A DNA stretch of 64,000 bases, taken from a phage. The position numbers and the translations under genes were made by a program. This document shows, one piece after another, positions 1 to 35,122 of the stretch; the first letter of the stretch is position 1; every line of letters starts with the position of its first letter. The stretch is taken from sequence record PQ374922.1; one strand, 5' to 3'. The notes under the pieces are model-generated. The model had not been told where the DNA came from. It saw only the letters and a list, made by a program, of their open reading frames with translations, and ran no database searches.

Positions 1-3000
1 ATGGCTAATAAACCAACACAGCCTGTTTTCCCTCTCGGTCTGGTGGCTGAAGAGCAGTCTACTTTGGCTGGTGTCGTCAACACGGGTACGATTGAGCATG
101 GACCAGATGCTGTCCTGACTTTACCCGAGGGTAATGCCAGCGCAGGACTCCCGTCTTCCGTTCGCTACAATGCCGACTCCGACGAATTTGAGGGCTTCTA
201 TGAAAATGGTGGATGGTTGCCGCTGGGTGGCGGTGGTATCCGCTGGGAAGTCCTTCCGCATGCCTCTACGACAACGCTCACTGAAGGGCGAGGCTATCTC
301 ATTAATAATACCACAGGGGCATCTACAGTGGTTCTCCCTTCCCCTACGCGTATTGGGGATTCCGTTACTATTTGTGATGCTTATGGGAAATTTGCCACTT
401 ACCCATTGACCGTGTCTCCTTCTGGAAATAATTTGTATGGCTCCACTGAAGACATGGCTATAACAACTGATAACGTATCAGCAACGTTCACTTGGTCTGG
501 ACCTGAACAAGGTTGGATTATTACATCCGGCGTCGGTCTTGGCCAAGGTCGCGTCTACAGTCGTGAAATCTTTACAAAAATTTTGGCGTCTGAAACAAGT
601 ACTGTCGCTCTCAATACCCCACCAACAATCGTGGACGTGTATGCTGACGGAAAACGTCTTGCGGAATCCAAATATTCACTAGATGGGAATGTAATCACTT
701 TCAGCCCTTCTTTGCCAGCCAACACAGAACTTCAGGTGATTGAATATACTCCTATTCAATTGGGTAATGGCGGTGGTTCTAGTTCTTCTACGATTACCTG
801 GGTCTATAATGGGGGTTCAGCGATTGGCGGTGAAACCGAAATCACGTTGGACGTCGTTGTTGATGATGTTCCGGCCATTGATATAAACGGAAGTCGCCAG
901 TATAAAAATCTGGGATTCACATTCGATCCATTAACCAGTAAAATCACTCTTGCGCAAGAACTGGAACCAGAGGATGAAGTTGTTGTGATTATAAATGGGA
1001 CACCAAACATTTATAACCAAATCGATCGTTCTTTACAGGAAGTTGCTCGTGCTGCTAACGTTAAAAATAGTGAAGTAATTCTTAGCACTGATATCACTCA
1101 ATTCTTGAATGACAAGAAAGTTGTTTATGATGTTACCGAACAGAAGGCTTATGGCCTACCTTCTTTGCCAACTAACGTTTGTATTGGTTCAGTATCTAAT
1201 GGTCAGCTTACTTATAATCCAGGCAGCATTACCGTAGATTTGATTCCATTGCCTAACTCCGTCGAACTGTTAAGCAATAATTTGATGTCATCTACAGGGT
1301 CTAGCTTCGTTAAGCATGGGGATAAGACTGTAGGGGAAATCTTGGATACCTTATCCAGTGTTCAACTACACTACTCTTCCTTTGCCTCTCTTACGGAGTT
1401 ACATGACTATATCATTAACAATAACCTTACTAACGTGGATATTATTTTTGATAAGGTATTAACTTTAGGTCCAGGCTCTGGTGGGTTAGGAACTCTGTTT
1501 GTACTCAGTAACATGAAGCACCTTGGTATCCACAACCTGGTTATAGATGACACTCTCCTCTATTCTGGTTCGTTTGATTTAACCCGTGTATTCGACCTTG
1601 CTAACATAGGTAATTTATACATGGAGGTAGATGCTACCAGTACCCTGGAATATGTTGGTGATGATAAAAGGGGGCTAACCCCATTACGTTTAAATGGCTG
1701 CGATAATTTTACGTTTATTGGTAAAACTACACGCTGTTATCAAGGTTATGAATGTACTAATGTAAAAAATCTCCATGCTCGTAGTGTGAATAATGATACT
1801 CGCTATCCACATCTTCTTGGTAATGTTGGTACAGTTGATATCCACACAGTTAATAATGGTTGTCGTCGTGACTTCTTCCTGACGAATAATTGTGCTGGGG
1901 GGAAGATTACAGTTGATGCCGTGGATACACAGCAGGGTACACCAATCAAAATGTACTTCTATAATGGGAACATGGACAACCAAATAAGTAACCTGACAAT
2001 TAATTATAAGTACCGTAGCACAGGTCGTTACACACTTCCGTACCGAGTAGCACCAATATGGTTGGATTGGGGCTGGGACAGCACCATAACGGAGTCTATG
2101 GTTGCTGGGCTGATGCGTAACATAACCATCATTTATGATGTCGTCGGGGGGAATTGGGGGAGTGTTATCGGCACAACAAAGCTGATTGATGAGTCTGTAG
2201 CAGACAACAACCCACGTGGCTATGGCTATTCAAATATTGTGATCACCGGACGCATAGAATTGGGGGGTGGGGACTCCAATAATCACGCATGGTTCTTTAA
2301 CTTCAACTCTAATGATAACTGGGTATCAGGAGATACTATTAATGGGTTTATCTGTCGTGACCTGGTGGTCCGGAAGCTGAATGGTGGTGATGTATACGTC
2401 AACACCAATCAGCTTACAGGTGCAGTGACAAATTATGGAGGAGTTAAATTTGAAGGTGTTAGTGCACCAGAAGCTAAGTTAACAGCTACTGATTACAGTA
2501 AAGTAAAATTTGCTAATTGCACGTTTTCTGATTTTGCATCTTTAGGTGCAGCAACTGATTCAAGCAAATGTGCTACGGGTTCCTTGCTGTTTATTAAAGC
2601 TGCTGGAAACCCAGGAAAATTCAAACTTGGAACGGTTAGTACATATCGTAACGTGAGCCTGTGGACCGTTGATGTTGTCGCTAACTCCCCTCTCTCTGGG
2701 GTATCGTCGGCATGGCATGGGCGTTTACAGGGAACACTGGCGATGGCTACAACTCCAGCAGCAAGCACAATGGAAGGTTCAGTACAAAGCTCGTTCACAA
2801 AAGGAACAGCAGCTACGCCGACTATATCAGTCGATGCTAGTGGTAACGTGTTCCTTAACTTTGATGGATGGGACGCACTAGAGGCTAACGTGGCTGTAAA
2901 TGTTAAAATGCAGTATGACGAATACAGTGGCGGAGGCAACAAAACTGTACGTGGTATGTTAAGCAAAGCTAATGGTGGGTTTAGTCTGAACCTTAGTTAA
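1..3000 (+). CDS. Tailspike protein with long N-terminal extension, shared anchor module and beta-rich C-terminal receptor-binding region; may be 5'-truncated by window edge
   Basis: 999-aa ORF starting at window position 1; internal module SEVILSTDITQFLNDKKVVYDVTEQKAYGLPSLPTNV..QLTYNPGSITVDLIPLP is paralogous to modules in the ORFs at 6468 and 9357; GC-hairpin terminator follows. Confidence 0.8.
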   Translation: MANKPTQPVFPLGLVAEEQSTLAGVVNTGTIEHGPDAVLTLPEGNASAGLPSSVRYNADSDEFEGFYENGGWLPLGGGGIRWEVLPHASTTTLTEGRGYLINNTTGASTVVLPSPTRIGDSVTICDAYGKFATYPLTVSPSGNNLYGSTEDMAITTDNVSATFTWSGPEQGWIITSGVGLGQGRVYSREIFTKILASETSTVALNTPPTIVDVYADGKRLAESKYSLDGNVITFSPSLPANTELQVIEYTPIQLGNGGGSSSSTITWVYNGGSAIGGETEITLDVVVDDVPAIDINGSRQYKNLGFTFDPLTSKITLAQELEPEDEVVVIINGTPNIYNQIDRSLQEVARAANVKNSEVILSTDITQFLNDKKVVYDVTEQKAYGLPSLPTNVCIGSVSNGQLTYNPGSITVDLIPLPNSVELLSNNLMSSTGSSFVKHGDKTVGEILDTLSSVQLHYSSFASLTELHDYIINNNLTNVDIIFDKVLTLGPGSGGLGTLFVLSNMKHLGIHNLVIDDTLLYSGSFDLTRVFDLANIGNLYMEVDATSTLEYVGDDKRGLTPLRLNGCDNFTFIGKTTRCYQGYECTNVKNLHARSVNNDTRYPHLLGNVGTVDIHTVNNGCRRDFFLTNNCAGGKITVDAVDTQQGTPIKMYFYNGNMDNQISNLTINYKYRSTGRYTLPYRVAPIWLDWGWDSTITESMVAGLMRNITIIYDVVGGNWGSVIGTTKLIDESVADNNPRGYGYSNIVITGRIELGGGDSNNHAWFFNFNSNDNWVSGDTINGFICRDLVVRKLNGGDVYVNTNQLTGAVTNYGGVKFEGVSAPEAKLTATDYSKVKFANCTFSDFASLGAATDSSKCATGSLLFIKAAGNPGKFKLGTVSTYRNVSLWTVDVVANSPLSGVSSAWHGRLQGTLAMATTPAASTMEGSVQSSFTKGTAATPTISVDASGNVFLNFDGWDALEANVAVNVKMQYDEYSGGGNKTVRGMLSKANGGFSLNLS

Positions 3001-3004
3001 TAAA

Positions 3005-3030
3005 ATTCCCCTCTTCGGAGGGGATCTTGT
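3005..3030 (+). terminator. Rho-independent terminator-like hairpin (cccctc-ttcg-gagggg) followed by T-rich tract
   Basis: Perfect 6-bp GC stem with UUCG-type loop directly after the stop at 3000. Confidence 0.6.
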
Positions 3031-3063
3031 TATACCTTTGTTCATAAATTTGATTAGTTCAGA

Positions 3064-3074
3064 CTAAATACCCC
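3064..3074 (+). promoter_or_regulatory. Late-promoter-like motif CTAAATACCCC
   Basis: Recurring box about 30 nt upstream of late-gene ATGs; here followed by complementary TATGGGGTA near the RBS. Confidence 0.6.
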
Positions 3075-3103
3075 ATATTGGACATCCTTTATGGGGTATT
3101 ATC

Positions 3104-6100
3104 ATGATTTCTCAATTCAATCAACCACGCGGCTCCACTTCCATAGAAGTTAACAAACAATCTATCGCTCGAAATTTCGGTGTCAAAGAAGACGAAGTCG
3201 TTTATTTCACTGCTGGTATTGATCTCAGTGGATTTAAAGTAATTTATGATGAGTCTACCCAACGGGCCTATTCTCTTCCTTCAGGTATTGTTTCAGGAAC
3301 GACTGCGATAAGTCTGAACGGACAAGCCATCCTCACTCATTCCGCTGGTTCTGTTGACCTCGGAGAATTAGCCGTATCCCGTGAGGAATATGTTACATTG
3401 CCTGGTTCATTTGATACAGGTGTAACTGTTAATTGTAAGAATGAATTAGTTGTCTTTACCGAGGGCAAGTACCGCTGGGATGGTGAATTACCTAAAGAAG
3501 TTCCTGCTGGTTCGACTCCTGAATCGTCTGGCGGCATTGGTGATGGGAAATGGGTCGGTGTTGGGGATGTGGCACTGCGTGGACAGATTTCAGACCCCGA
3601 GGGTGCAACAAAATATCCTGAACTACAAATGGCTCGCTGGCGTGATAATGGCGATCCGCGTGGATGGGGTGTTAAAGGTGATGCTGTACATGATGATACA
3701 GCAGCATTAACGAGCGTATTAAACGACACACCGGTTGGACAAAAGATTAATGGCAATGGGAAGACATATAAGGTCACATCCCTGCCTGACATTAGTAGAT
3801 TCGTCAATACTCGTTTTGTATATGAACGTATTCCTGGTCAGCCGCTTTATTATGCCTCTGAAGAATTTGTTCAGGGTGAGCTGTTCAAAATAACGGACAC
3901 CCCTTATTACAATGCGTGGCCACAAGATAAAGCGTTCGTTTACGACGATGTTATTTACTGTCCGTTCATGGCTAGTGATAGACATGGGGTTAGCAGGCTG
4001 CATGTATCCTGGGTTCGTTCAGGGGATGACGGACAGACCTGGACAACCCCGGAGTGGTTAACCGACCTACATCCTGACTATCCGACAGTTAACTACCACT
4101 GCATGAGTATGGGGGTGATGCGTAATCGTCTCTTTGCGATGATTGAGACCCGTACATTGGCATCTAACGCACTGGTAACCTGTGAGTTGTGGGATCGCCC
4201 CATGTCCCGTAACTACCATCCGACAGGCGGTATCACTAAAGCCGCCAACCAGCCTGTGGCTGTAATTACTATCCCTGAACACGGTCTTTTTGCTGGGGAT
4301 TTTGTTAACTTCTCAAACTCTGGGGTGACTGGAGTTTCAGGGAATATGACTGTAACTTCAGTTATTGACCGCAACACTTTCACAGTTACCACGCCAAATC
4401 AACAGGCGTTTGACCAAAATAATTCTGCCAGCCGTTGGCATATGGGTACATCGTTCCATGAGTCGCCGTGGCGTAAAACCAGCCTTGGGTTAATCCCAAT
4501 GGTGACTGAAGTTCATAGTTTTACCGCCATCAATAATGATTCATTCATGATGGGGTATCACCAAGGTGATGTTGCTCCTCGTGAAGTTGGCATGTTGTAT
4601 TTCCCGGATGCGTTTAATAACCCGGGTTTATACCAAAAACGTCGTATTCCTGCTGATTATGAACCTGATGCGGCAGAGCCTTGCGTTAAATATTTTGATG
4701 GCGTTCTTTATGTCTTAACTCGTGGTACTCGTTCAGATCGTTTGGGGAGTTCGTTGCATCGTAGTCATGATTTGGGCATGACTTGGGAATCACTCAGATT
4801 TCCTAATAATGTTCACCACTCTACGTTGCCGTTCGCTAAAGTCGGTAATGAACTAATCATTTTCGCCACAGAGCGTGCTGATAACGAATGGGAAGCCAAT
4901 GTACCTGATCAACGATACTTTACTTCTTATCCACGAACGTTCTACACGCGAGTGAACCTAGACACCTGGAACCTGGATAATACTCAGTGGGTGAATATCA
5001 CTGACCAGATTTATCAGGGCGGTATTGTCAACTCTGGAGTCGGTGTTGGCTCAGTGGTTGTTAAGGATAGTTATATCTATTACATGTTCGGTGGGGAAGA
5101 CCATCTGAACCCCTGGACATATGGAGATAACTCAGCGAAAGACCCATTCAAATCAGATGGTCATCCCTCAGATTTGTATTGCTACAAAATGAAGATTGGC
5201 CCAGACAATCGTGTTTCCAGGGATTTCAGATATGGTGCTGTACCTGACAGAGCTGTTCCCGTGTTTTTTGATACGAATGGGGTTCGCACTGTCCCTGCGC
5301 CAATGGAATTTACAGGAGATTTGGGTTTAGGTCATGTGACCCTTAGGGCCAGCACCAGTAATAACATTCGCTCTGAAATGCTACTGGAAGGCGAGTATGG
5401 GTTTATTGGGAAATCTGTACCTACTAATAACCCAGCAGGACAGCGCACCATATTTTGCGGTGGAGAAGGAACCAGTTCTTCTACTGGTGCACAGATTACG
5501 CTTTACGGTGCGAATAACACAGCTTCTCGCAGGATAGTTTACAACGGAGCTGAGCACCTGTTCCAGACTGCTGATGTTAAGCCTTATAACGATAACGCTA
5601 TTGCTCTTGGTGGGCCCAGCAACCGTTTCACCACTGCATACCTCGGAAGCAACCCTATTGTTACTTCTAACGGAGAGAAGAAAACGGAGCCGGTAGTTTT
5701 TGATGATGCTTTCCTGGATGCCTGGGGTGACGTTCACTACATCATGTACCAGTGGTTAGATGCTGTTCAACTGAAAGGCAATGAAGCTCGTATTCACTTC
5801 GGGGTTATTGCTCAGCAAATTCGTGATGTATTCATTGCACATGGTCTGATGGACGAAAACAGTACGGATTGTCGTTATGCCGTTCTGTGCTATGACAAGT
5901 ATCCACGGATGACCGATATGGTATTTTCGCACAATGAAATCGTTGAACACACTGACGAGGAGGGTAATGTCACCACCACGGAAGAGCCTGTATTCACTGA
6001 GGTGGTTATTCACGAAGAGGGTGAGGAGTGGGGCGTGCGGCCTGACGGAATTTTCTTTGCTGAAGCTGCTTATCAGCGAAGAAAACTGGAAAGAATCGAA

Positions 6101-6130
6101 GCCAGACTTTCTGCTCTTGAACAGAAGTAA
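3104..6130 (+). CDS. Tailspike protein with sialidase-like beta-propeller (two Asp-box motifs) and C-terminal intramolecular chaperone-like domain
   Basis: 1008 aa; Asp-boxes SGDDGQTW (4019-4042) and SHDLGMTW (4763-4786); N-terminal anchor-like module; acidic C-terminal ~150 aa (about 5680-6130) resembling self-cleaving tail-fibre chaperone domains. Confidence 0.8.
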   Translation: MISQFNQPRGSTSIEVNKQSIARNFGVKEDEVVYFTAGIDLSGFKVIYDESTQRAYSLPSGIVSGTTAISLNGQAILTHSAGSVDLGELAVSREEYVTLPGSFDTGVTVNCKNELVVFTEGKYRWDGELPKEVPAGSTPESSGGIGDGKWVGVGDVALRGQISDPEGATKYPELQMARWRDNGDPRGWGVKGDAVHDDTAALTSVLNDTPVGQKINGNGKTYKVTSLPDISRFVNTRFVYERIPGQPLYYASEEFVQGELFKITDTPYYNAWPQDKAFVYDDVIYCPFMASDRHGVSRLHVSWVRSGDDGQTWTTPEWLTDLHPDYPTVNYHCMSMGVMRNRLFAMIETRTLASNALVTCELWDRPMSRNYHPTGGITKAANQPVAVITIPEHGLFAGDFVNFSNSGVTGVSGNMTVTSVIDRNTFTVTTPNQQAFDQNNSASRWHMGTSFHESPWRKTSLGLIPMVTEVHSFTAINNDSFMMGYHQGDVAPREVGMLYFPDAFNNPGLYQKRRIPADYEPDAAEPCVKYFDGVLYVLTRGTRSDRLGSSLHRSHDLGMTWESLRFPNNVHHSTLPFAKVGNELIIFATERADNEWEANVPDQRYFTSYPRTFYTRVNLDTWNLDNTQWVNITDQIYQGGIVNSGVGVGSVVVKDSYIYYMFGGEDHLNPWTYGDNSAKDPFKSDGHPSDLYCYKMKIGPDNRVSRDFRYGAVPDRAVPVFFDTNGVRTVPAPMEFTGDLGLGHVTLRASTSNNIRSEMLLEGEYGFIGKSVPTNNPAGQRTIFCGGEGTSSSTGAQITLYGANNTASRRIVYNGAEHLFQTADVKPYNDNAIALGGPSNRFTTAYLGSNPIVTSNGEKKTEPVVFDDAFLDAWGDVHYIMYQWLDAVQLKGNEARIHFGVIAQQIRDVFIAHGLMDENSTDCRYAVLCYDKYPRMTDMVFSHNEIVEHTDEEGNVTTTEEPVFTEVVIHEEGEEWGVRPDGIFFAEAAYQRRKLERIEARLSALEQK

Positions 6131-6135
6131 TAAAC

Positions 6136-6166
6136 AAAACCCCGCTTCGGCGGGGTTAGTTTTTAC
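6136..6166 (+). terminator. Rho-independent terminator (aaaccccgcttcggcggggtt + T-tract)
   Basis: 8-bp GC stem, UUCG loop, T-run; same hairpin sequence recurs near 24378 and 31115. Confidence 0.7.
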
Positions 6167-6172
6167 TTATTA

Positions 6173-6430
6173 ATAATACTTTTTATATAGAGTTTACTGT
6201 TTGCATTACCCTTACTGATACAGCAGTTAAGGTAATAGTCTGACCTGATATGTTGAACATACCTAACTGTATACCATCCACCATGAAAGGGTCTGCTGAA
6301 CCTAGTGTGTAAGTAGCTAAAACGTTATCCCTGTTGGCTATATCTACACCCTGAACTTTGGTACTGGCATCTGAACCTACTATTGTAGTTCCATTGGTTC
6401 TCCTTGTTATACCTTTGTTCATAAATTTAT
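6173..6430. repeat. Copy A of ~240-bp intergenic direct repeat
   Basis: About 85% identical to 11305-11525 by eye; carries an intact 79-codon minus-strand ORF. Confidence 0.6.
6183..6422 (-). CDS. Small hypothetical protein (79 aa) encoded inside the repeat element; possibly a relic
   Basis: Intact ORF in copy A only; no convincing RBS; second copy is frameshifted. Confidence 0.25.
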   Translation of the reverse strand: MNKGITRRTNGTTIVGSDASTKVQGVDIANRDNVLATYTLGSADPFMVDGIQLGMFNISGQTITLTAVSVRVMQTVNSI

Positions 6431-6439
6431 TAGTTCAGA

Positions 6440-6450
6440 CTAAATACCCC
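6440..6450 (+). promoter_or_regulatory. Late-promoter-like motif CTAAATACCCC
   Basis: Same box and downstream TATGGGGTA complement as at 3064; leader nearly identical to that of the 3104 gene. Confidence 0.6.
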
Positions 6451-6467
6451 ATATTAGCAAATCCTCT

Positions 6468-8912
6468 ATGGGGTATCTTCAAATGACCAGAAACGTCGAG
6501 AGCATCTTTGGAGCGGTCGTAACAGCTCCGCACCAGATTCCATACACTTACACAGCAACGGGCGGAGAGAAGTTTATCTCCCTCCCTTTCTACCCTGTCA
6601 CGGGTATAGTCACAATCAACGGTGGTATGCAAGTTCCGTTAGACAACTTTGAAATCGATGGAAATACGTTGAATCTCGGGTGTGCATTATCCAAAGGTGA
6701 CGTTGTGTTCTGTCTGTTTGATAAGATTCTGTCTCCAGAAGATTATAAAACCGGGATTCGAATCTATAAGTTTCAGGCTATAGGAGGTGAAACCGAGTTC
6801 ACTCCTGATTACACATCTTATGGAGTCCAATCTCTTTATATCGGTGGTGAGTACAAAACACCCGAAATTGAATATTCCTATGACAGCACGACAGGGAAAG
6901 TGACTTTACAAACTGCGCTGACTGCAGGCGTTTGGGTAGTCGCTGAAATGTCTGTTAAACAACCGAATATCAGTCCGTTGTTTGACCGAAGTATTCAAGA
7001 AATCGCCCGTTCAGCTAATGTAAAAGATTCTGAAGTAATTCTTAGTACTGACACTACGCAATTATTGAATGGTAAAAAGATTGTCTACTCTGTTAGTGAG
7101 CAGAAGTCATATGGTTTACCTGTATTACCAGCGAATGTATATATTCAGTCTGTTAATGCAGGTAAGTTAACATATTCCCCTGGCGAAATTGTTGTTGATC
7201 TACTTCCTGTACCATCTTCAGTAAGAGATGAGCTGACTGCATATAAAGCGGATTTAGCTAGTGATTCCGGTGCAAGTAAGATTGGTATTAAGATTTCTTT
7301 GCCTGGGACAATTTCTCGTACATTGCAGGAACGGGCAGAAGATAGTGTTAGTGTCAAAGATTTTGGTGCAGTGCCTAATCTTACAACAGATAGTACTTAC
7401 GCCATTCAAGCTGCAATTGATGCGACTCCGTCTGGAGGTACTTTAGGTTTCTATGGCGGACCCTATAGGTTTGGTACTGTTACCGTGGACAAACCTATTA
7501 CACTAGTTGGAGATGCAGACTTGCAGTTTGAGTGTATTCGTATCAAAACAAGTAAGTTTCATAGTTTCTTGACAGGGACACTTACTGCTGCGAGATATGA
7601 CAACGCATGTCGTGCATTTCAAATATTGGCCTATGAAGACGGTAGAGACTATGAGGACATCAAGGTACATGGTGCACGTTTCGAGGGTTTCTTCTATAAC
7701 ACAGACTTCCGAGGTCGCTCTTACGATGCGTCAGAAAGCGATCCTACTAACAGAGTAGTTCGTGACACCTCTATTATGGGCTGTACTTCAGTTCAGCCTA
7801 AAGATGGTAAAGATAGAGGCCACTTTCAACACGTAGGTGTGACCAATGCCAAGTGCATAGGTAACTCGACGTATGGTGGCAAGAATGCTACTTCTTATAA
7901 CTTCATTAATGGTAACGGCTCTTTGGTGGTTATTGGTAACTATGACCATGACAATGAATATGGATCCTTAGAGATTGAGAATAACCAGATAAGCTACGGT
8001 GTTGTTACTGGTAATATCTTCCATAAACAGCTATGGATAGATGATACTAGCAACATTAACGTAATAGGTAACACCTGCACGGATAGGATTTTCATTACTG
8101 CACAATCTAACAACTCTGAGAACGTATCAGTAGTAGGAAACAATGTACCTCGCATCTACGTCAGTAAGTTTGGTCAAAGCCCAACAGGTCGTCACCGTAA
8201 CTTGACTATACGTGGCAACCATATCACTGGCAAGGATGTTCCTAACTGTATATTCTTAGATGATTCTATTGATTCCGCTTCTATTGAGGGTAATGATTGT
8301 TATGGTGTGTCTGGTGTTAGAGGTATAGCCATTACTCGCCATTCCGGTGCTAACTATACGGTGCGTCATAATAACTTACATGGCACTAACTTACTCTTTA
8401 GTGGTTCAGGCGGCAAAGTTTATAGTTATGACAACTTTGATGTTGGGGTTGATGAATCCCCTGTTATAAACAGAACTGACGCAATGCACATTGACAACCT
8501 TCTTCGTGTAAATGAAGAATACCTTGATTTGCCAGGAAAGTACCTATACAAATCTAAGTATGCAGGAGAAATTGCACAAGGTGGGTCAGTTACTATTGAG
8601 TTACCTGTATCAACAAGTGGTACTTTGTCTTTCCGTGGTCTTAGTCTGTGGGTTCTTATCCGTAACGTTTCTACAGGAAACTTTTCTTCCTATCGTGTCG
8701 ATGGAAGGCATGCAGTATTTGGCTCCTCTGTTACTGTTAGCTTTGGTGATAAATATGGAGCAGTAGGAGTAAATACTGGCGATATTACTGTTAGTGATGA
8801 TTCCTCCACAGCTAATCTTATTCGTATCAAGGTAATCAATGGGCACGTAGATCAAACAATGCAAGTGACAGTCATACCAGAGGTAACGAGCAGACTTGGG
8901 ACTGAAGAGTGA
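6468..8912 (+). CDS. Tailspike protein, pectate-lyase-like beta-helix type (true start may be ATG at 6483)
   Basis: 814 aa; anchor module SEVILSTDTTQLLNGKKIVYSVSEQKSYGLPVLPANV; VKDFGAV..TDSTYAIQAAIDA beta-helix entry motif. Confidence 0.8.
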   Translation: MGYLQMTRNVESIFGAVVTAPHQIPYTYTATGGEKFISLPFYPVTGIVTINGGMQVPLDNFEIDGNTLNLGCALSKGDVVFCLFDKILSPEDYKTGIRIYKFQAIGGETEFTPDYTSYGVQSLYIGGEYKTPEIEYSYDSTTGKVTLQTALTAGVWVVAEMSVKQPNISPLFDRSIQEIARSANVKDSEVILSTDTTQLLNGKKIVYSVSEQKSYGLPVLPANVYIQSVNAGKLTYSPGEIVVDLLPVPSSVRDELTAYKADLASDSGASKIGIKISLPGTISRTLQERAEDSVSVKDFGAVPNLTTDSTYAIQAAIDATPSGGTLGFYGGPYRFGTVTVDKPITLVGDADLQFECIRIKTSKFHSFLTGTLTAARYDNACRAFQILAYEDGRDYEDIKVHGARFEGFFYNTDFRGRSYDASESDPTNRVVRDTSIMGCTSVQPKDGKDRGHFQHVGVTNAKCIGNSTYGGKNATSYNFINGNGSLVVIGNYDHDNEYGSLEIENNQISYGVVTGNIFHKQLWIDDTSNINVIGNTCTDRIFITAQSNNSENVSVVGNNVPRIYVSKFGQSPTGRHRNLTIRGNHITGKDVPNCIFLDDSIDSASIEGNDCYGVSGVRGIAITRHSGANYTVRHNNLHGTNLLFSGSGGKVYSYDNFDVGVDESPVINRTDAMHIDNLLRVNEEYLDLPGKYLYKSKYAGEIAQGGSVTIELPVSTSGTLSFRGLSLWVLIRNVSTGNFSSYRVDGRHAVFGSSVTVSFGDKYGAVGVNTGDITVSDDSSTANLIRIKVINGHVDQTMQVTVIPEVTSRLGTEE

Positions 8913-9061
8913 TGCCATTAATCAAGTCAGTTAAGCAAAGTGCTGTACGCCGGAACGCAGAAGAACTCATCAAGGAAGAGTGTGACCCTAAGCAGGCTTA
9001 CGCCATTGCTAAGGATGTACAACGTCGTGCAATGAAGAAACCTTCTGTATCTTCTGCGTAA
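8912..9061 (+). CDS. Small hypothetical ORF (49 aa) translationally coupled to the upstream tailspike gene
   Basis: ATG overlaps the upstream stop (TGATG); basic helical-looking product; below the ORF-track size cut-off. Confidence 0.2.
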   Translation: MPLIKSVKQSAVRRNAEELIKEECDPKQAYAIAKDVQRRAMKKPSVSSA

Positions 9062-9356
9062 GCAGGTTAATATCTTAGTGTACACAAGGGCAGACCTATG
9101 ATAGCTCACAGCACACCTATGAGTGCCGCTCTGGAGTCTATGACTTGTTCCCTGACTATCTAGGTTTGCTCTTAGTGTATTCCAAGTATTAATATGAAAG
9201 GTTGGTGTAACATTGTAGGAGGGAATGGATGGTTATTGTATCTAGTAAGAGGAAAAGTCTAGATAAGATAATGCATACTGGCCTACGCTACCGTGTACTT
9301 ACCTAGTTATAAGACCCCGCTGAAGCGAGGTCTTCTAGAAAAACAAAGAGGTTGCT

Positions 9357-11264
9357 ATGAACGAGATGTTCTCTCAAGGTGGTAAAGGCTCTACGGGTAT
9401 TCTTACCAATATACAAGCCATTGCTCGTGCATGTAACGTAGCAGAAGGTAAAGTTATTCTCAGTACGAATACTAATACATTGCTAGATGATAAGACTGTA
9501 CTCTTCGATCGTAATGCTAAGAAGATATGGACTTTACCTACTCTCCCCTCCGGGGCAACCATTGCTAATGTAAATGGTGACCAATTAACCTATAACCCAG
9601 GAGGTATTACCGTTAGTCTACTTCCTGCACCAAATGACATTGCTGTACGAGTTAATGAAGCCATTACAGCAGTATATGACGAACTGGCTTCTAACACTGG
9701 CTCTAGTAAGGTTGGTCACATTACCGGACGTGTTGGTGAAGTTGCTCGCACTGTACAGGCTGCATTAGGTGATTGGGTAAGTCTGAAGGACTTTGGTGCA
9801 GTAGGTGATGGGATTACCGATGACACTGATGCTATTCAGGCTATGGTTGCTTGGGTAAACTCCCGAGCCAAATACTCTGCACCCATTTCTGTTATCTTTC
9901 CTGCTGGTCATTATAAGTACACTACTGGTATAAACTTTACACGCCCTGTAGCAGTATATGGTTTTCAGTCAGCTACTCTGGACTACTCAGGTACAGGTGC
10001 AGCAATGTACTTAGGTGACCCAACTCCAGAAGATGCACCTACTGCTGATAACTTTTATCAGTCTGAATACACTATAGAGGGTCTGCGATTCACTGGTGGT
10101 GTGCAAGCAGGTTTCGGTATTTTCATTAAGTCCTTCGTATTCACACCTAGAATCAGATACTGCATCTTTATGGACTATGGTAACTCTGCAACCTATGACA
10201 TCTATTCTCAGTATGAGAACTGGGATGGAATCATTGAGTGTTGTGAGAAACATACCTACTTCAGTACAGTAGCAACTGGTAGTTTCATAGCTCTCCTTGG
10301 CAAGAAGACTGATGGTAGTGCCTATGATGGTGGTAACTCACGATTTACCATACGTGACTGCTCAATGGGTGCATACGATAACCAAGACTTAGGTTACTTT
10401 GCATATATCAACTCTACATTGTGCCGTGTAATCGGAGGTAACGCACACCACTGTACCGGAGGTATTCTCCTTGGACCAAATGCTCACGGTGCTATTATTG
10501 ATGGATACTACACAGAGGTGAGTACAGCTGTACGACCTTGGATGGTTTCAGTGCTTAGTGACAAGACTAATCCTGCAAACTACCTTTTCCCACAGAGTGT
10601 ACGAATCCGTAACTGTTACATCAACATGCATAGCGAGAAGATAGGGAATAACGGTCGCATCATCGGAATGATGGATGGTAACGTTAAGTTACGTGATTGG
10701 GTAGTAGAGGATATTGCTGTTAGTACATTTGCTAATGGGCAGGTTCTGATTGATATGAACAACCTTGATGAACAGGTTAATAACACCTTTGCGCGAATTA
10801 ATCCTGTATTCATCCCTTATAACTCAGGTGCGGGTGCTAAATTCACTGTTGTCAATAACCCACCATTATCACCAAATGCATGGACATCCTCTGATGTTAT
10901 AGAAGGTACATGGACCCCTTCTGTAGGTGGTAATGCCACTTACAACATTCAGAAGGGTAAGTACCGTAAGGAAGGTCGTAAGGTAACAGTAGAGTTTGAT
11001 ATTCATATCAATACTATTGGTACAGGAAATCAGTCAGCAATTTTAGGTCTGCCTTTTGCGTGTGGTGATTCCACAGGTACAGGTAGTGTAAGCTACTATG
11101 CTGAACTTGCCTTACCTGTTTATGGTTTGTATATCCGAGTAGATGCACTAAGCTCCGATATTACAATCTCTGCATCCACAGCCTCAGCAGCGGGTATCTC
11201 TGGTTCTGTTGCAGCACTGGGGAATAATTCACGAATCATGGGTACATTGGTTTACTTTGTATAA
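9357..11264 (+). CDS. Tailspike protein, pectate-lyase-like beta-helix type
   Basis: 635 aa; N-terminal anchor module KVILSTNTNTLLDDKTVLFDRNAKKIWTLPTLP..QLTYNPGGITVSLLPAP; LKDFGAVGDGITDDTDAIQAMVAW motif; RBS aaagagg. Confidence 0.75.
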   Translation: MNEMFSQGGKGSTGILTNIQAIARACNVAEGKVILSTNTNTLLDDKTVLFDRNAKKIWTLPTLPSGATIANVNGDQLTYNPGGITVSLLPAPNDIAVRVNEAITAVYDELASNTGSSKVGHITGRVGEVARTVQAALGDWVSLKDFGAVGDGITDDTDAIQAMVAWVNSRAKYSAPISVIFPAGHYKYTTGINFTRPVAVYGFQSATLDYSGTGAAMYLGDPTPEDAPTADNFYQSEYTIEGLRFTGGVQAGFGIFIKSFVFTPRIRYCIFMDYGNSATYDIYSQYENWDGIIECCEKHTYFSTVATGSFIALLGKKTDGSAYDGGNSRFTIRDCSMGAYDNQDLGYFAYINSTLCRVIGGNAHHCTGGILLGPNAHGAIIDGYYTEVSTAVRPWMVSVLSDKTNPANYLFPQSVRIRNCYINMHSEKIGNNGRIIGMMDGNVKLRDWVVEDIAVSTFANGQVLIDMNNLDEQVNNTFARINPVFIPYNSGAGAKFTVVNNPPLSPNAWTSSDVIEGTWTPSVGGNATYNIQKGKYRKEGRKVTVEFDIHINTIGTGNQSAILGLPFACGDSTGTGSVSYYAELALPVYGLYIRVDALSSDITISASTASAAGISGSVAALGNNSRIMGTLVYFV

Positions 11265-11280
11265 CGCGTGACATTACTAA

Positions 11281-11310
11281 AAGCCCCCAATTAAGGGGGC
11301 TTTTCTTATA
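11281..11310 (+). terminator. Rho-independent terminator (aagcccccaattaagggggctttt)
   Basis: GC-rich stem plus T-tract after stop at 11264. Confidence 0.65.
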
Positions 11311-11525
11311 TAGAGTTTACCGTTTGCATTACCCTAATTGATACTGCTGTCAGGGTGATTACTTGCCCAGATATATTAAACATACCTAGTTGAATACCAT
11401 CCACCATGAAAAGGGTCAGTTGAACCAAGCGTGTAAGTAGCTAATACATTATCCCTGTTAGCAATGTCCGTTTTATACTAGCGTCTGAACCTACTACTGT
11501 AGTTCCATTGGTTCATCCCATTCTC
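11305..11525. repeat. Copy B of ~240-bp intergenic direct repeat (degenerate; internal ORF disrupted)
   Basis: Alignable by eye to 6173-6430; extra A in the homopolymer breaks the ORF found in copy A. Confidence 0.55.
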
Positions 11526-11635
11526 TTGCTGTACCACCACAAATAGCAGAGGTCTTGAATCCATGACCATAACCACAGAAAGATAATCAAAGACCCTTCG
11601 GACTTATTTCTTTCTATTCCTCGGTTGGTTGTATA

Positions 11636-11646
11636 CTAAATATCTC
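11636..11646 (+). promoter_or_regulatory. Late-promoter-like motif variant CTAAATATCTC
   Basis: About 30 nt upstream of ATG 11677. Confidence 0.45.
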
Positions 11647-11676
11647 TATAATGGCACCTATCGATGGAGCATCAAA

Positions 11677-14600
11677 ATGCAAGAAATGAACCTCAACCGC
11701 CGCCCATATTGGGATGACTGGAATCCAGAGAAGCGTTTTTCGCGCATCCTATTCCGCCCGGCACCTATCAAAGTTCAGACGCGTGAACTGAACCAGATGC
11801 AGACCATCTTCCAGGATCAACTGGAGAAACTTGGCAACCATCTGTTCAAAGACGGATCAATGGTTATCCCCGGCGGCCTGACGATCACCAATACTGCTGT
11901 GTCCATGAAGTTCACTCTGGCTGGTGGTAGTGAGTTCACTGATCTGGAAGGTATCTCCGAACTCTATGTTCTGGGCAAGGACAACAATGCGAAAGCACGC
12001 GTCCTGTCCTTGGAACGTTATCCAGCTGAGCCGGATACAATGTATGCCATCTTAGAGATGACTGAGAGTGGTAGTTCAGACGGTTTCGAAGCTGGCGACA
12101 ACCTATACTTCAACACCTATGACGTGAACGATAACTTCATCCGTGTCGGCTATGGTGTGGCCGATACTGTTGGTGGTTCGATTGTTGCTCGCATGACAAA
12201 GGGTGTTTATTTCGTTCGTGGTATGTTCCTGGATGTTGAACCAGCCACTCTGATCGTAGACAACGCATCGAACTCTACATCTCACCGCATTGGCTTCAAA
12301 GTTACAGAAACAATCGTGACCGAAGCAGAAGATGAAAGTCTGTTCTCCAATGCTCAGGGTACTCCGAACTCTAAAGCCCCTGGTGCGCATCGCCTGCGCG
12401 TCGACCTCGTGTTGTCTCGCTACGGTTATGATGAAGAAGTGGCCGACTTCGTTGAACTGGCGAAGGTGAAAGACGGTCGTGTTCAGTCCATGGTCACCCA
12501 GTCAACGTACAACATCCTCGAAGACGCCATGGCTCAGCGTACCTATGAGACCAACGGGGATTACAACGTCTCTACTCACCAGATCGACCTGCGCGAACAT
12601 CTGAAACAGAACAACAACGGCGGCGTTTACACTCCGGCCGAAGGTGGCGACGAAAGCAAATTCGTGGCGGTTATGAAGCCAGGGATATCCTACGTTCGTG
12701 GTCGTCGTATCGAAAACCTCGGCGAAGAGCTGGTCATAATTGACAAAGCCCGTGACACTGATATCCTGAACAACAACCCTGTGGCTGTTTCGACTGGCAA
12801 CTATCTGGTGTCCAAGAACTCCAAAGGGGTTCCGGTTGTCTCCCGCACAATCCGCTACAAGTTCCTGAACGCATCCAGCGATGTGCAGGCCACCGCCCTG
12901 CTGATTTCGGCAGAGCGCTCTGGTGCTGAATTCCGTCTGTATATGCGCGACCTGGTTGTGACTGGGGACATGGGCACGGTGACCAAAGTCGCTTATGAAG
13001 AAAGCGGCACAACCATGTTCTCTTGTGAACTGGAGTCCAATCAGTTCAGCCAGAGTTCAGCAATTGACCTGATCTTCCCTCTGCCTGTATTTGGTGTGAA
13101 GACTCTAGCACCTACAGGCACCATCGACATCAACTACACTGTCCTGCGGTCAAACAAGATCACGTTGAACGCCGCTGGTGCAGGCTCAATTTCTGCTCCT
13201 CTGGGTTACAGCTTCAGCCCTGAGTTTTCACTGTATTCCGCAGCGAAAGCAGATGGCACTGCAGCTCAGTTTGATATCTCTTCGGGACTGTCCCTGGCTG
13301 GTACTCCGGTTGGTTCAGCACTGCAGATTTCCCTGGGCGCGGGGTACGCCAACCAGTCTATCAACCTGTTGGCATTGATGGTCCGCACCACAGCGACGAT
13401 CAAGACCAAGACTGTTACCGAAGTCACCGAGACTGTGACGTTTACCGCGGCAGCCAGCGCACAACTTGGGAACCATGATGGTTACAAGCTGATCAGCGTG
13501 AAGAACGCAAATGGCGCTGACGTCACCTCTAACTTCACTCTGGACGGCGGTCAGCGTGATGCTGCATACTACCTTTCTAACCTCATATCGTCCACAGGAG
13601 CCATTTCAGGGACGTTCACGGTGGTGTATCAGTATTTCGCTCACAGCTCTGGTGATTTCTTCACAGCGGACTCCTATTCGTCCATCAACTACCCAGACAT
13701 CCCGAACTATGTTTCATCCAGTTCTGGTACTGTGTATGGGTTGGCCGACAGTCTGGACTTCCGTCCCAAGATCACCAGCGGAGCGTCTGACACGGACATG
13801 GTTCGCCCGAACACCGCGATCATCCTAGATGCAGAGTACTATCTGCCTCGTATTGATGCTGTGTATCTGGCAGACAACGGTGTGTTCAACGTTGCTCGTG
13901 GTGTGAGTTCCAACAACCTGGCTTCCCCTGCGATCCCAGACAACGGCATGCGCCTGTATGAATTGATGATCCCACCATACACGGCCAACATTGACGACAT
14001 CCAGATTCGTACTATCGACAACCGCCGCTACACGATGCGCGATATCGGTAAACTGGAGACCCGTATCTCCAATGTCGAATATTACACCTCACTGTCTCAG
14101 CTGGAATCCTCGGCGATGTCACAACAGGTGTTCGATCCAATTACTGGCAACCCGCGCTTCAAGAACGGTATCGCAGCAGACCCGTTCAAAGACTTCCGTC
14201 TGATCGACGATTTGTCTGCAGACTGGGTGGGTTCAATCGACACTGACAATGGTCGCCTGCGTCCGTTTGTTCAGCAGAACGCGATTGACCTGACGCCAGT
14301 CGGTTGGAACAACGTTCAGGATGGCATGGTTGTATGCAACTACACCCGTGAGATCTCTGTCCGCCAGGACTATGCAACCACGACCATCAACGTGAACCCG
14401 TATGCGGTGTTCAACTGGGAAGGTTTCTTGAAGCTGAACCCAACTACTGATTACTGGTTTGAGAACTACTATGTTACTCCACGTGTGATCAACGAAACGA
14501 TCAACACCCGTGGTGCGATCAAAGAAGGTTCTGTGTATGGCACATGGCGTACTGTGTCCGTGTCTGAGCGTGTGTGGGAACCGCATGGTGCAGGTGGTGT

Positions 14601-16515
14601 ATGGTGGGGCTATCGCTACCGCACGACTGTGTCTACCCGTGACGTCACCACGTACACGTACACCGACAAGACGACCACTACCCTGACTGGCGAGCAGATC
14701 GTTGAAACGCAGGTTATCCCATACATGCGCAAAACGAACATCAACTTCGAAGCCACAGGCCTGCGTCCGTTCACTCGTGTGTATCCGTTCTTCTCTGGGC
14801 GTGATGTGAGCGCGTACTGTACCCCAAACGGTGGTGTACTGGGTGGTGCGTTGAATACTGATGCCAACGGCAACATCAAAGGTGTGTTTGCGGTTCCTCA
14901 GAACGAGACTATCAAGTTTAACACGGGTGACAACGTCTTCCGTCTGACTGACAGTCCTGTGGACAGCAAGTCTGCTGATGATACCCTGACCAATGCCGAG
15001 GCTGTTCATAAGTCCTTCGGCAAGAAACAGGGCATCCAGAAGACTTATGTCAACACCCGCGTCCTGGGATACACTGCGACCAAGTCTACGGAAAACAAAA
15101 CAGAGACGGTTGAAGTCGCGAAGTGGAAAGATCCTATCGCCCAGTCCTTCATGGTTGCCACCAATATCGGCGGCGAATACATCGAAGGCATCGAAGTGTT
15201 CTTCTCTACCAAGTCCCGTGATATCCCGATCACTCTGGAAATCCGCGAGATGAGCAATGGTCTGCCAGCGACGACTGTCGTCACTCGTAAGACTCTGAAT
15301 CCATCAGAAGTTTCCATCTCCACAGACTCTTCTGTGCCGACGATGTTCAAGTTTGATTATCCTGTGTATCTGCAGGCGCAAACCGAGTTCGCGATTGTTC
15401 TCTTGGCCAACACTCAGGACTACAACGCATACATCGCAGAGATGGGCAAGAAGAACTTGCTGACCAACGAGTTCATTGCCAAACAGCCGTACACAGGCGT
15501 GTTCTTCACATCTTCAAATGGTACGACCTGGACTCCAAACCAGACTGCCGATATGAAGTTCCGTGTATATCGCTGTAACTTCTCCGCTGGTTCGAACATC
15601 GTGACCTTCGATGCTAAAGTCGGTCCGAAGATCCGCCCTCTGGGTCTGAATACCGTGAAATGTGTCAACGGTTCTTCAACTGTTACTGTGTACGCTCCGG
15701 GGCATGGCCTGACTGCGGGTGAAAGTGTTACTCTGTCTGGGTTGACGGGTGGTTGCGGTTTCACTCCTGAGCAACTGAACGCTCAACACACTGTGACTGA
15801 TGCGACGTTCACGACGTTCAAATTCGTTCTGAGTTCCAACGCCGACTCCGACGGTCAGATTGGTGGTGAAGCGGCTTCTTTCCTAGGCAACTACTTGGTA
15901 GACATGTTCTACGCAAGCGTCACCAATTCAGCCCTAGAAGGATCTGTATTGAAACTGGAATACCGCTATCGCGATGCGACCTCCAACTCATTCTCTGATT
16001 GGGTTGAGTTCGAATCCGATACGGACGTGTCTCTGCCGACGGAAGGTATCTATCGTCAGGTGGGCGACTTCCAGGTTCGTGCAACCATGACTCGCAACGA
16101 GAGTAATGTCTACACGGCTCCAATGATCGACGGTGATGATTTCACTATCATCTTCAACACCTACGGTGTGGATCCGTTTGAAGATGTGTTCAGCTATGTG
16201 ACCAAGGATATCGGATTCGATAACCCTTGCACCACTCTGAAGCAATACTTCGGCGCGATGCTACCTTCTCAGTCTTCAATGACTGTGCAGGTTAAACTTC
16301 TGCGCGCAGGTCAGGAGATGGATAATGTGCCATGGGAAACAGTGACACCGACATCCCCTCTGGTCAATGACGGTTCTACATTCTTCGAATATGAGTATGA
16401 CAAGACTGTAGAAAGCACCAATCCTTTCGTTGGTCTGAAGATCCGCCTGCTGGTCAGAGGCAACCGCACAGCACCGCCGTCATTCAAAGATTTCCGTTTG
16501 ATTGCTCTGGCATAA
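11677..16515 (+). CDS. Large virion structural protein (1612 aa), likely baseplate or tail-fibre associated
   Basis: Long ORF between the tailspike cluster and the neck genes; ORF track begins at TTG 11629, first ATG with RBS (ggag) is 11677; E. coli-like codon usage; function not assignable by eye. Confidence 0.6.
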   Translation: MQEMNLNRRPYWDDWNPEKRFSRILFRPAPIKVQTRELNQMQTIFQDQLEKLGNHLFKDGSMVIPGGLTITNTAVSMKFTLAGGSEFTDLEGISELYVLGKDNNAKARVLSLERYPAEPDTMYAILEMTESGSSDGFEAGDNLYFNTYDVNDNFIRVGYGVADTVGGSIVARMTKGVYFVRGMFLDVEPATLIVDNASNSTSHRIGFKVTETIVTEAEDESLFSNAQGTPNSKAPGAHRLRVDLVLSRYGYDEEVADFVELAKVKDGRVQSMVTQSTYNILEDAMAQRTYETNGDYNVSTHQIDLREHLKQNNNGGVYTPAEGGDESKFVAVMKPGISYVRGRRIENLGEELVIIDKARDTDILNNNPVAVSTGNYLVSKNSKGVPVVSRTIRYKFLNASSDVQATALLISAERSGAEFRLYMRDLVVTGDMGTVTKVAYEESGTTMFSCELESNQFSQSSAIDLIFPLPVFGVKTLAPTGTIDINYTVLRSNKITLNAAGAGSISAPLGYSFSPEFSLYSAAKADGTAAQFDISSGLSLAGTPVGSALQISLGAGYANQSINLLALMVRTTATIKTKTVTEVTETVTFTAAASAQLGNHDGYKLISVKNANGADVTSNFTLDGGQRDAAYYLSNLISSTGAISGTFTVVYQYFAHSSGDFFTADSYSSINYPDIPNYVSSSSGTVYGLADSLDFRPKITSGASDTDMVRPNTAIILDAEYYLPRIDAVYLADNGVFNVARGVSSNNLASPAIPDNGMRLYELMIPPYTANIDDIQIRTIDNRRYTMRDIGKLETRISNVEYYTSLSQLESSAMSQQVFDPITGNPRFKNGIAADPFKDFRLIDDLSADWVGSIDTDNGRLRPFVQQNAIDLTPVGWNNVQDGMVVCNYTREISVRQDYATTTINVNPYAVFNWEGFLKLNPTTDYWFENYYVTPRVINETINTRGAIKEGSVYGTWRTVSVSERVWEPHGAGGVWWGYRYRTTVSTRDVTTYTYTDKTTTTLTGEQIVETQVIPYMRKTNINFEATGLRPFTRVYPFFSGRDVSAYCTPNGGVLGGALNTDANGNIKGVFAVPQNETIKFNTGDNVFRLTDSPVDSKSADDTLTNAEAVHKSFGKKQGIQKTYVNTRVLGYTATKSTENKTETVEVAKWKDPIAQSFMVATNIGGEYIEGIEVFFSTKSRDIPITLEIREMSNGLPATTVVTRKTLNPSEVSISTDSSVPTMFKFDYPVYLQAQTEFAIVLLANTQDYNAYIAEMGKKNLLTNEFIAKQPYTGVFFTSSNGTTWTPNQTADMKFRVYRCNFSAGSNIVTFDAKVGPKIRPLGLNTVKCVNGSSTVTVYAPGHGLTAGESVTLSGLTGGCGFTPEQLNAQHTVTDATFTTFKFVLSSNADSDGQIGGEAASFLGNYLVDMFYASVTNSALEGSVLKLEYRYRDATSNSFSDWVEFESDTDVSLPTEGIYRQVGDFQVRATMTRNESNVYTAPMIDGDDFTIIFNTYGVDPFEDVFSYVTKDIGFDNPCTTLKQYFGAMLPSQSSMTVQVKLLRAGQEMDNVPWETVTPTSPLVNDGSTFFEYEYDKTVESTNPFVGLKIRLLVRGNRTAPPSFKDFRLIALA

Positions 16516-18829: not shown

Positions 18830-19525
18830 ATGGCCAGACCATTTGAAAATTACTTCTACCATGATTCATTGATGAAATACATCAATCTGTTTGCCACCAT
18901 TATGTCTGATCTGAAGGTGAACACAGAGCGTGGTCTTATGGAAGTCCCATTACACATGGCCATCGGGAGACGCAATGACCTCAACAGGAACGTGCCATCC
19001 AACATGCTCCCATTTGCGACCTTCTCTTTTGGTCAGTTTGAGATCAACAAACAGGTGACGAAGACGTACCACAATCGACAATCGACACCAACAGCAGGGG
19101 CGAAGCAGCGAATCCCCCTGATTATCGATTTTGAGTACAATATCCGAACCAAGAAATTAGTTGAGATGTTACAGGTGCTAGAGCAGGTTTATTCGGTATT
19201 CACTCCCTCTCTAGACTGTGGTATCAAGGACAACGATACACTACAGCAAGACCAGAAGATCAAGATCCAACTGGTCAGCCACCAGATGTCCGATAACTGG
19301 GAAGGGGATGCTTCTGATTCACCACACGTCGACTGCTCCTTCATGTTCCAGCTGAGCGGCTTCATCTACGGGTATGACTATTGGGTGGACAACGAGGGAG
19401 GCGGGGATCCTAACGGGATCAAAGAGATAATTATCGAAATGTCTAATGATTTGAAAACACCGTGGACGGAACTGCCGGAGTGGTTCCGTGTTGACAAAGA
19501 CGGTGTACATCATCCTGGAGATTGA
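18830..19525 (+). CDS. Tail completion and sheath stabiliser protein, gp15-like
   Basis: 231 aa; segment KKLVEMLQVLEQVYSVFTPSL resembles the T4 gp15 region FQIVEQILPYFQP; synteny. Confidence 0.65.
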   Translation: MARPFENYFYHDSLMKYINLFATIMSDLKVNTERGLMEVPLHMAIGRRNDLNRNVPSNMLPFATFSFGQFEINKQVTKTYHNRQSTPTAGAKQRIPLIIDFEYNIRTKKLVEMLQVLEQVYSVFTPSLDCGIKDNDTLQQDQKIKIQLVSHQMSDNWEGDASDSPHVDCSFMFQLSGFIYGYDYWVDNEGGGDPNGIKEIIIEMSNDLKTPWTELPEWFRVDKDGVHHPGD

Positions 19526-19527
19526 TT

Positions 19528-35111: not shown

Positions 35112-35122
35112 CTAAATACCCC
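35112..35122 (+). promoter_or_regulatory. Late-promoter-like motif CTAAATACCCC with complementary ATGGGGGTAT hairpin arm
   Basis: Exact box about 25 nt upstream of ATG 35147. Confidence 0.55.

Follow-up and report, generated by a model that had tools for sequence, protein, structure and literature searches.

Escherichia coli K1 is a cause of meningitis in newborns, of infections of the urinary tract and bloodstream, and of colibacillosis in birds; most phages are stopped by its capsule. The phage endosialidases (endo-N-acetylneuraminidases), which we take to be CAZy family GH58, are textbook enzymes in their family, fold, catalytic machinery and chaperone mechanism, with solved structures for endoNF, the endosialidase of phage K1F (gp17; PDB 1v0e, 3gvl and 3gw6). 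A second described system, tailspike protein 3 (TSP3) of phage CBA120 (PDB 5w6f/6nw9), belongs to a branched four-spike complex: its head is required for binding the TSP4-N:TSP2 complex (PMC8825819), and it binds only when that complex is pre-formed (PMC8825819; PMC11414711). Here we analyse a 64,000-nucleotide (nt) stretch of phage DNA from sequence record PQ374922.1 (the window) and within it one gene, tsp3, at 3104-6130 on the + strand, which a preliminary description made from the letters alone had read as a tailspike and possible sialidase or endosialidase. At a probability of roughly 0.88, we read tsp3 as the TSP3 of an Aglimvirinae phage in which a complete endoNF-type endosialidase, predicted to be K1-active after self-cleavage, has taken the place of the usual beta-helix receptor-binding body. 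Only the phage family that carries the enzyme is unusual.

Homology and functional residues of the tsp3 body

The tsp3 open reading frame (ORF) is intact, with an ATG start and 1008 codons followed by a stop. In phmmer searches of PDB sequences, amino acids (aa) 185-854 match the endoNF structures 3gvl/1v0e (E = 0, 1350 bits) with ~84% aa identity over these 670 residues, aa 734-1008 match 3gw6, which comprises the endoNF stalk plus chaperone (E 3.4e-176), and aa 191-852 match the phi92 endosialidase 4hiz (E 4e-232, 776 bits). All four endosialidase Pfam domains are present together with Peptidase_S74 (PF13884; aa 858-915, E 5.8e-9, 36.6 bits against a cut-off of 22), and they stand in the canonical order (Table 1). 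Such identity to solved endoNF structures settles the question of fold. The sialidase or endosialidase reading of the preliminary description can be sharpened accordingly: the endoNF match, the Pfam set and the conserved residues set out below support an endosialidase in the strict sense, beyond a sialidase-like propeller.

Functional residues were mapped by aligning the tsp3 protein with K1F gp17 and with its counterparts in phages YX22, UE-S5a and IME392, using the positions of a K1F deep mutational scan (PMC12632334), to which R837, S848, Q853, S911 and K916 of endoNF were added. Twenty of the 21 functional positions are kept relative to endoNF. Among the residues reported in the scan as catalytic or critical are H350, R549, E581, R596 and R647 (PMC12632334), all conserved here as H294, R493, E525, R540 and R591. 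The equivalents of endoNF Q330, D331, H527, S528, K585, N699, R866 and D994 are conserved too, as are the stalk positions equivalent to R812, Y821, R837, S848 and Q853. The last three (R781, S792 and Q797 here) presumably form the stalk sialic-acid binding site, and a polysialic-acid binding site of endoNF, its beta-barrel, has its equivalent at aa 368-450.

At the C-terminus, the preliminary description had noted an acidic region of ~150 aa resembling the intramolecular chaperone of endosialidases. Both halves of that statement hold, since residues 855-1008 (154 aa) contain 31 aspartates and glutamates against 15 lysines and arginines (isoelectric point, pI, 4.62), and the likeness to a chaperone is borne out by the Peptidase_S74 and 3gw6 matches. 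This C-terminal domain (CTD) is 96.8% identical to that of K1F. Residues S855 and K860, in the context IVT/SNGEKK, correspond to endoNF Ser911 and Lys916, which we take to be the catalytic dyad of the cleavage site. The K1F record AM084414 annotates two mature peptides, gp17* (aa 2-910) and gp17-CTD (aa 911-1064), and mapping them onto tsp3 predicts self-cleavage between T854 and S855 (between nt 5665 and 5666), with products of 94.4 kDa and 17.9 kDa. As far as sequence can go, the identification of the protein as an endosialidase with a self-cleaving chaperone is supported.

The two perfect Asp-boxes from which the preliminary description had argued lie exactly where it placed them (Table 1). 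The motif S.D.G.TW has a mean of 0.00025 matches per shuffled protein of tsp3 composition, so two copies in one ORF are not chance. A six-frame scan of the window also returned one further perfect Asp-box (SVDHGKTW; minus strand, 20060-20083). We rejected this as a second sialidase-like gene: it sits in an antisense ORF of 85 aa that runs across the + strand genes at 19522-20235 and 20207-22426, and is a chance match. The motif alone is therefore weak evidence, and it is homology that decides.

The TSP3 head, the spike cluster and the mosaic junction

The preliminary description missed the CBA120-type TSP3 N-terminus, which by homology places the enzyme in the branched four-spike complex. Residues 1-165 pair one for one with those of CBA120 "tailspike protein 3" (5w6f/6nw9; phmmer E 3e-84), the head being almost identical to it across aa 1-102, and Pfam Tail_spike_N is found at aa 90-155. 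The upstream ORF (1-3000) matches 7rej, the TSP4-N335 anchor/assembly fragment of CBA120, over aa 1-338 (E 5e-196), and the downstream ORF (6468-8912) matches residues 1-250 of 6w4q (E 4e-129), which we take to be CBA120 TSP2; with both neighbours matched in this way, both docking partners are encoded, docking regions included. Since the ORF at 9357-11264 has a TSP1-type head, the cluster reads, on these matches, in the order tsp4-tsp3-tsp2-tsp1, with the endosialidase in the tsp3 slot. The label "second tailspike" was right in + strand order, and the protein is TSP3 in CBA120 nomenclature. The accompanying claim that its three neighbours are all pectate-lyase-like spikes stands, by Pfam, for 6468-8912 and 9357-11264; the receptor-binding part of 1-3000 has no Pfam match. 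Across the TSP4 body (aa 408-999), the only match is phrog_34575, "tail spike protein".

Over its backbone (20000-44000), the window shares 99.2% identity with Escherichia phage YX22 and ~98% with RPN242, LHE287, ZQ1 and AV101, all of them Ackermannviridae of the Aglimvirinae. By these identities the carrier is an Aglimvirinae (Agtrevirus-like) Ackermannviridae phage.

By megablast, gene nt 1-407 are homologous to Agtrevirus tsp3 heads (93.9% to "tail spike 3" of PC3), and homology to endosialidase genes starts at gene nt 367 for K1F gene 17, at nt 448 for IME392 and at nt 535 for Gamaleyavirus, with 82.4% nt identity for K1F versus 90.9% for the Gamaleyavirus UE-S5a group. Head and body homologies therefore overlap at the end of D2 and in the neck, which places the crossover there. 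The segment in which it falls, of the form …YRWDG.LPK.VPAGSTP…VGD..LR…, is common to K1F gp17 residues ~156-245 and to TSP heads. At the 3' end, the podovirus genes cease to be homologous at 6141-6163, at the terminator hairpin.

YX22 (OR776998; Ackermannviridae, Aglimvirinae) is the only other public record with the full chimera. Its protein WPH64569 has the same length (1008 aa), the same chimeric composition and the same cluster position, with 96.1% aa identity overall and 99.9% nt identity over gene nt 721-3027; the record annotates the gene only as "tail spike protein" and the enzyme is not identified there. The host of YX22 is the avian pathogenic E. coli strain IMT5155, an O2:K1 strain on which ND-4, another Ackermannviridae phage, was also isolated; the 2026 paper on ND-4 mentions no sialidase (PMC13608507). 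The chimera is thus already in GenBank, unrecognised, and the modest novelty here is another copy, joined in a different way, in the TSP3 slot of an Ackermannviridae phage.

The two copies differ at 134 nt of the gene, and 130 of these differences fall in codons 61-240. This patch is 60-87% identical between the phages, with 0.94 synonymous (dS) and 0.16 nonsynonymous (dN) substitutions per site (dN/dS ~0.17), and dS in its flanks is 0.025 and 0.004, the start of the head carrying a single difference. By this comparison, recombination has exchanged the neck for a diverged homologue that is subject to purifying selection. We considered positive selection as the source of this divergence and rejected it, a dS of 0.94 with a dN/dS of 0.17 being that of a replaced segment. 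Outside tsp3, the tailspike clusters of YX22 and the window have only conserved 5' assembly modules in common, and the receptor-binding parts of TSP4 (1070-3000), TSP2 (7175-8912) and TSP1 (9357-11264) have no YX22 counterpart. Because both the patch and the other spikes differ, a near-identical endosialidase body stands behind two necks and beside two spike sets.

Table 1. Features of tsp3 and of its flanking signals, in window coordinates.
Feature	Position	Strand	Details
tsp3, endosialidase tailspike precursor	3104..6130	+	1008 aa, 112.3 kDa
TSP3 head D1-D2 (docking module for branched tailspike complex)	3104..3568	+	aa 1-155; phmmer, Pfam
Recombinant neck patch (~600 nt)	3268..3877 (first/last differing bases)	+	versus YX22 tsp3
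Approximate 5' crossover zone, Agtrevirus TSP3 head / endosialidase lineage	3470..3510	+	megablast
Endosialidase N-terminal extension (End_N_terminal, PF12218)	3674..3871	+	aa 191-256; Pfam E 4.8e-36
Catalytic six-bladed beta-propeller (End_beta_propel, PF12217)	3872..5197	+	aa 257-698; Pfam E 1.2e-204
Asp-box 1, SGDDGQTW	4019..4042	+	aa 306-313
Beta-barrel insertion (End_beta_barrel, PF12195), nested in propeller match	4205..4453	+	aa 368-450; Pfam E 1.5e-40
Asp-box 2, SHDLGMTW	4763..4786	+	aa 554-561
Triple-beta-helix stalk (End_tail_spike, PF12219)	5204..5665	+	aa 701-854; Pfam E 1.3e-76
C-terminal intramolecular chaperone	5666..6127	+	aa 855-1008; 17.9 kDa, pI 4.62; 3gw6 E 3.4e-176
CTAAATACCC motif, putative late-promoter element	3064..3073	+	40 nt upstream of ATG
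CTAAATACC(C) motif copies	3064-3073, 6440-6449, 18147, 25238, 35112, 38309	+	window scan
Stable hairpin overlapping motif, just before tsp3 ATG	3067..3100	+	-20 kcal/mol, z = -4.05
Like hairpin before tsp2	6444-6476	+	z -2.61
Hairpin terminator, 8 nt after tsp3 stop	6138..6157	+	8-bp stem, 6 GC pairs, T-rich tail; -20.8 kcal/mol, z = -4.83
Like hairpin after tsp4	3007-3024	+	fold

Predicted mode of action and competing explanations

By analogy with endoNF and CBA120, the 112-kDa precursor would trimerise under the guidance of its C-terminal chaperone (aa 855-1008), which would then cut itself off between T854 and S855 via the Ser855/Lys860 dyad to leave a 94-kDa mature spike. This would dock by its D1-D2 head (aa 1-155) onto TSP2 in the TSP4-anchored branched baseplate complex. 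On K1-encapsulated E. coli, alpha-2,8-polysialic acid would be bound at the beta-barrel and stalk sites and cleaved at the active site of the propeller (E525, R540, R591, H294 and R493), so that the phage could tunnel through the capsule. The O2:K1 host of the nearest relative, YX22, fits the predicted K1 specificity.

Several observations weigh against this reading. The sole exception among the 21 functional positions is endoNF K410, which is Ser here; K410 was reported as essential in vitro, yet its substitution is tolerated in the phage context (PMC12632334). The beta-barrel is only 70% identical to that of K1F, although 93-98% identical to those of UE-S5a and IME392, and the barrel loops are host-discrimination hotspots in the K1F scan (PMC12632334); the range of K1 strains attacked may, on this sequence evidence, differ from that of K1F. 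The neck, moreover, is unlike that of YX22, so the geometric fit of head and body is assumed.

How far these points reach can be judged by setting the endoNF-type reading beside its rivals. That tsp3 encodes a generic Asp-box beta-propeller glycosidase or an exosialidase, unrelated to endosialidases, was the counter-case raised by the preliminary description itself; Asp-boxes are indeed known from many propeller families, and a perfect chance copy lies in a non-coding frame of the same window, but ~84% identity to endoNF across 670 residues and the presence of every endosialidase-specific domain leave this idea a vanishingly small chance, and we regard it as ruled out by the PDB and Pfam matches. 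An altered specificity deserves more thought. The protein could be an active polysialic-acid depolymerase with a specificity unlike that of K1F, perhaps for K92 (alternating alpha-2,8/alpha-2,9) or one that discriminates between O-acetylated and non-acetylated K1, in which case the label "K1-type" would hold no more than approximately. The phi92 endosialidase, which reportedly also cleaves K92, is among the matches, and, besides the divergent barrel, the second propeller segment (aa 451-698) is only 79% identical to K1F. Barrel loops and distal residues have been implicated in discrimination between K1 strains (PMC12632334). We nevertheless consider such a shift unlikely, as bit scores place the protein far nearer to endoNF than to the endosialidase of phi92, its active-site and stalk-site residues are all identical to those of endoNF, and the host of the sister phage YX22 is K1.

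The mosaic junction region, unlike that of the only other known copy, could also be taken as the mark of a recombination relic, in which the spike is expressed but not incorporated, or is catalytically silent, owing to a mismatch between the foreign body and the TSP3 head. This we hold to be very improbable. The ORF is intact over all 1008 codons and the neck patch evolves under purifying selection; the near-identity of the body in two phages with different other spikes implies maintenance; the D1 part of the head is almost that of CBA120 TSP3; and YX22 grows on a K1 host. An incorporated, K1-directed endosialidase spike thus remains the reading that we favour.

If it is correct, recognising the tsp3 endosialidase explains how such phages reach K1 hosts and makes this aspect of host range predictable from sequence. 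Homology of tsp3 would then indicate that Ackermannviridae can target the K1 capsule, and that a TSP3 head can accept a propeller-type, chaperone-dependent body in place of a beta-helix, which would be useful for engineering multivalent therapeutic phages. Understanding of the endosialidase mechanism itself is unchanged by the finding.

Possible cassette and module exchange, and comparison with known systems

Within the window, the CTAAATACCC motif has 8 matches with at most one mismatch against 2.3 expected, all on the + strand, with copies 28-45 nt ahead of the starts of + strand genes at 3104, 6468, 18177 and 25283. It resembles T4-type late promoters (TATAAATA), and the distribution of CTAAATACC(C) copies suggests that the motif is the late promoter of this phage. 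For the copies at 35112 and 38309, the start called for the ORF falls upstream of the motif and is probably over-extended. Bounded by the promoter-like motif and the terminator, tsp3 looks like a self-contained cassette. A scan of the window for sigma-70 promoters gave sites no more numerous than in shuffles, and neither a tRNA scan nor an Rfam scan of it gave a hit.

Conserved hairpins of the form ACCCCATA…TATGGGGT stand immediately before the tsp3 and tsp2 start codons. Their 5' arm overlaps the promoter-like motif, and the only G-rich, Shine-Dalgarno-like stretch is carried by the 3' arm. We may speculate that transcripts initiated at the motif would lack the 5' arm, and that in read-through transcripts the hairpin would form and could hide the ribosome site. 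The tsp2 start called at ATG 6468 falls within the second hairpin; from the alignment of 6w4q residue 1 with residue 6 of the tsp2 ORF and an in-frame ATG at 6483, the true start is probably 6483.

Downstream of tsp3, a single 4.3-kb block (7015-11334) takes in the receptor-binding portion of TSP2, the intergenic region and all of TSP1. In ShWW44 and St11Ph5, which are N4-like Gamaleyavirus phages, a host-recognition module of two genes is 97.8-97.9% identical to it. Several tailspike genes would here have passed together between a family of podoviruses and one of myoviruses. St11Ph5 was isolated on the uropathogenic E. coli up11, an O5ab strain, and by analogy with this host TSP2 and TSP1 may target an O5-type antigen. 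Within the shared block, directly after tsp2, a 50-aa ORF (8909-9061, + strand) occupies the place where ShWW44 has a 150-nt "hypothetical protein", conserved together with the spikes.

One interpretation, on which we are evenly divided, is that the K1 endosialidase circulates as a promoter-to-terminator cassette in a spike pool common to Agtrevirus myoviruses and Gamaleyavirus podoviruses, and is re-headed by recombination in D2 and the neck. We entertain it because the closest relatives outside Ackermannviridae are Gamaleyavirus endosialidases (91% nt), because two other spikes lie in the block that is 97.8% identical to St11Ph5, and because two Agtrevirus phages carry a 99.9% identical body with different necks and spike sets. 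If true, the phage would combine K1-capsule recognition with O-antigen spikes, possibly of O5 type, a combination not yet described for Ackermannviridae.

Several further observations concern the surroundings of the spikes. An element of ~220-335 nt occurs downstream of both tsp3 (6180-6400) and tsp1 (11303-11514), with 81-89% identity between copies; the first contains an intact minus-strand ORF of 79 aa (6183-6422), whose only match is to phrog_17779 (unknown function, E 3e-36), in its C-terminal third; the second copy is broken. The element resembles the remnant of a gene, and recombination between spike genes could use it as a substrate. The G+C content of the tailspike cluster (600-11700) is 38-47% versus 49-53% in the structural genes that follow (11700-16500), which fits an import of spike bodies from lower-GC phages such as St11Ph5 (42.6% GC). 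After the cluster, 11629-16515 (+ strand) encodes a 1628-aa protein with a DUF4815 match (E 9e-61), a weak Phage_spike_2 match and 98.4% identity to its YX22 counterpart, presumably a baseplate or tail-fibre component. Farther along, the P-loop of the terminase large subunit (20207-22426, + strand) appears to be interrupted (…RQSGK/CVKGD…FLSHN/TTVV…) by an insert of ~170 aa with intein-like ends; Pfam Intein_splicing matches aa 130-231 below its cut-off (E 1e-6, 29 versus 35.8 bits), and Terminase_6N resumes at aa 272 of the ORF.

The exact sequences of the four spikes are absent from a collection of 15 billion proteins. A scan of IMG/VR and a metagenome collection with the 330 residues spanning the junction revealed no chimera, returning heads only (aa 1-159 to 1-236) or bodies only (from aa 81, 102 or 177 onward). 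In the literature on Ackermannviridae that mentions endosialidase, judged mostly by titles and abstracts, no such chimera is apparent; two of these papers bring up the enzyme just among their references or in connection with the fold of the chaperone. Two surveys devoted to the tailspikes of Ackermannviridae and of Agtrevirus make no mention of sialidases.

Among the described systems, CBA120 TSP3 has the same head in the same slot between tsp4 and tsp2, and its body is a beta-helix specific for the E. coli O77 O-antigen (PMC11414711), whereas the body here is a propeller endosialidase with an S74 chaperone; in CBA120 TSP3, no released chaperone domain was detected. The phi92 endosialidase is likewise borne by a large contractile-tailed phage with a multivalent spike set, judging by the titles of papers on it, but the enzyme is far more distant (776 versus 1350 bits) and belongs to another attachment system and another phage lineage. 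Outside Ackermannviridae, the closest catalytic bodies are those of the N4-like Gamaleyavirus phages UE-S5a, UE-S5b, UE-M3, UE-M6, PBM-2 and PBM-3, with 90.8-90.9% nt identity over gene nt 535-3027 and 93-99% aa identity per domain; these proteins, at 1215 aa, have a longer and different N-terminal attachment region, and are paired with a K5 lyase rather than with three further spikes. K1F endoNF has the same domain order from the N-terminal extension through the chaperone, an identity from aa 102 onward of ~84% (aa) and ~82% (nt), and catalytic, stalk-site and cleavage residues identical to those found here. It differs in its T7-type particle-binding N-terminus (aa 1-~155), where tsp3 has a CBA120-type TSP3 head, and in its carrier: K1F is a 40-kb podovirus with a single spike type, and the endosialidase described here belongs to a ~155-kb myovirus relative with four.

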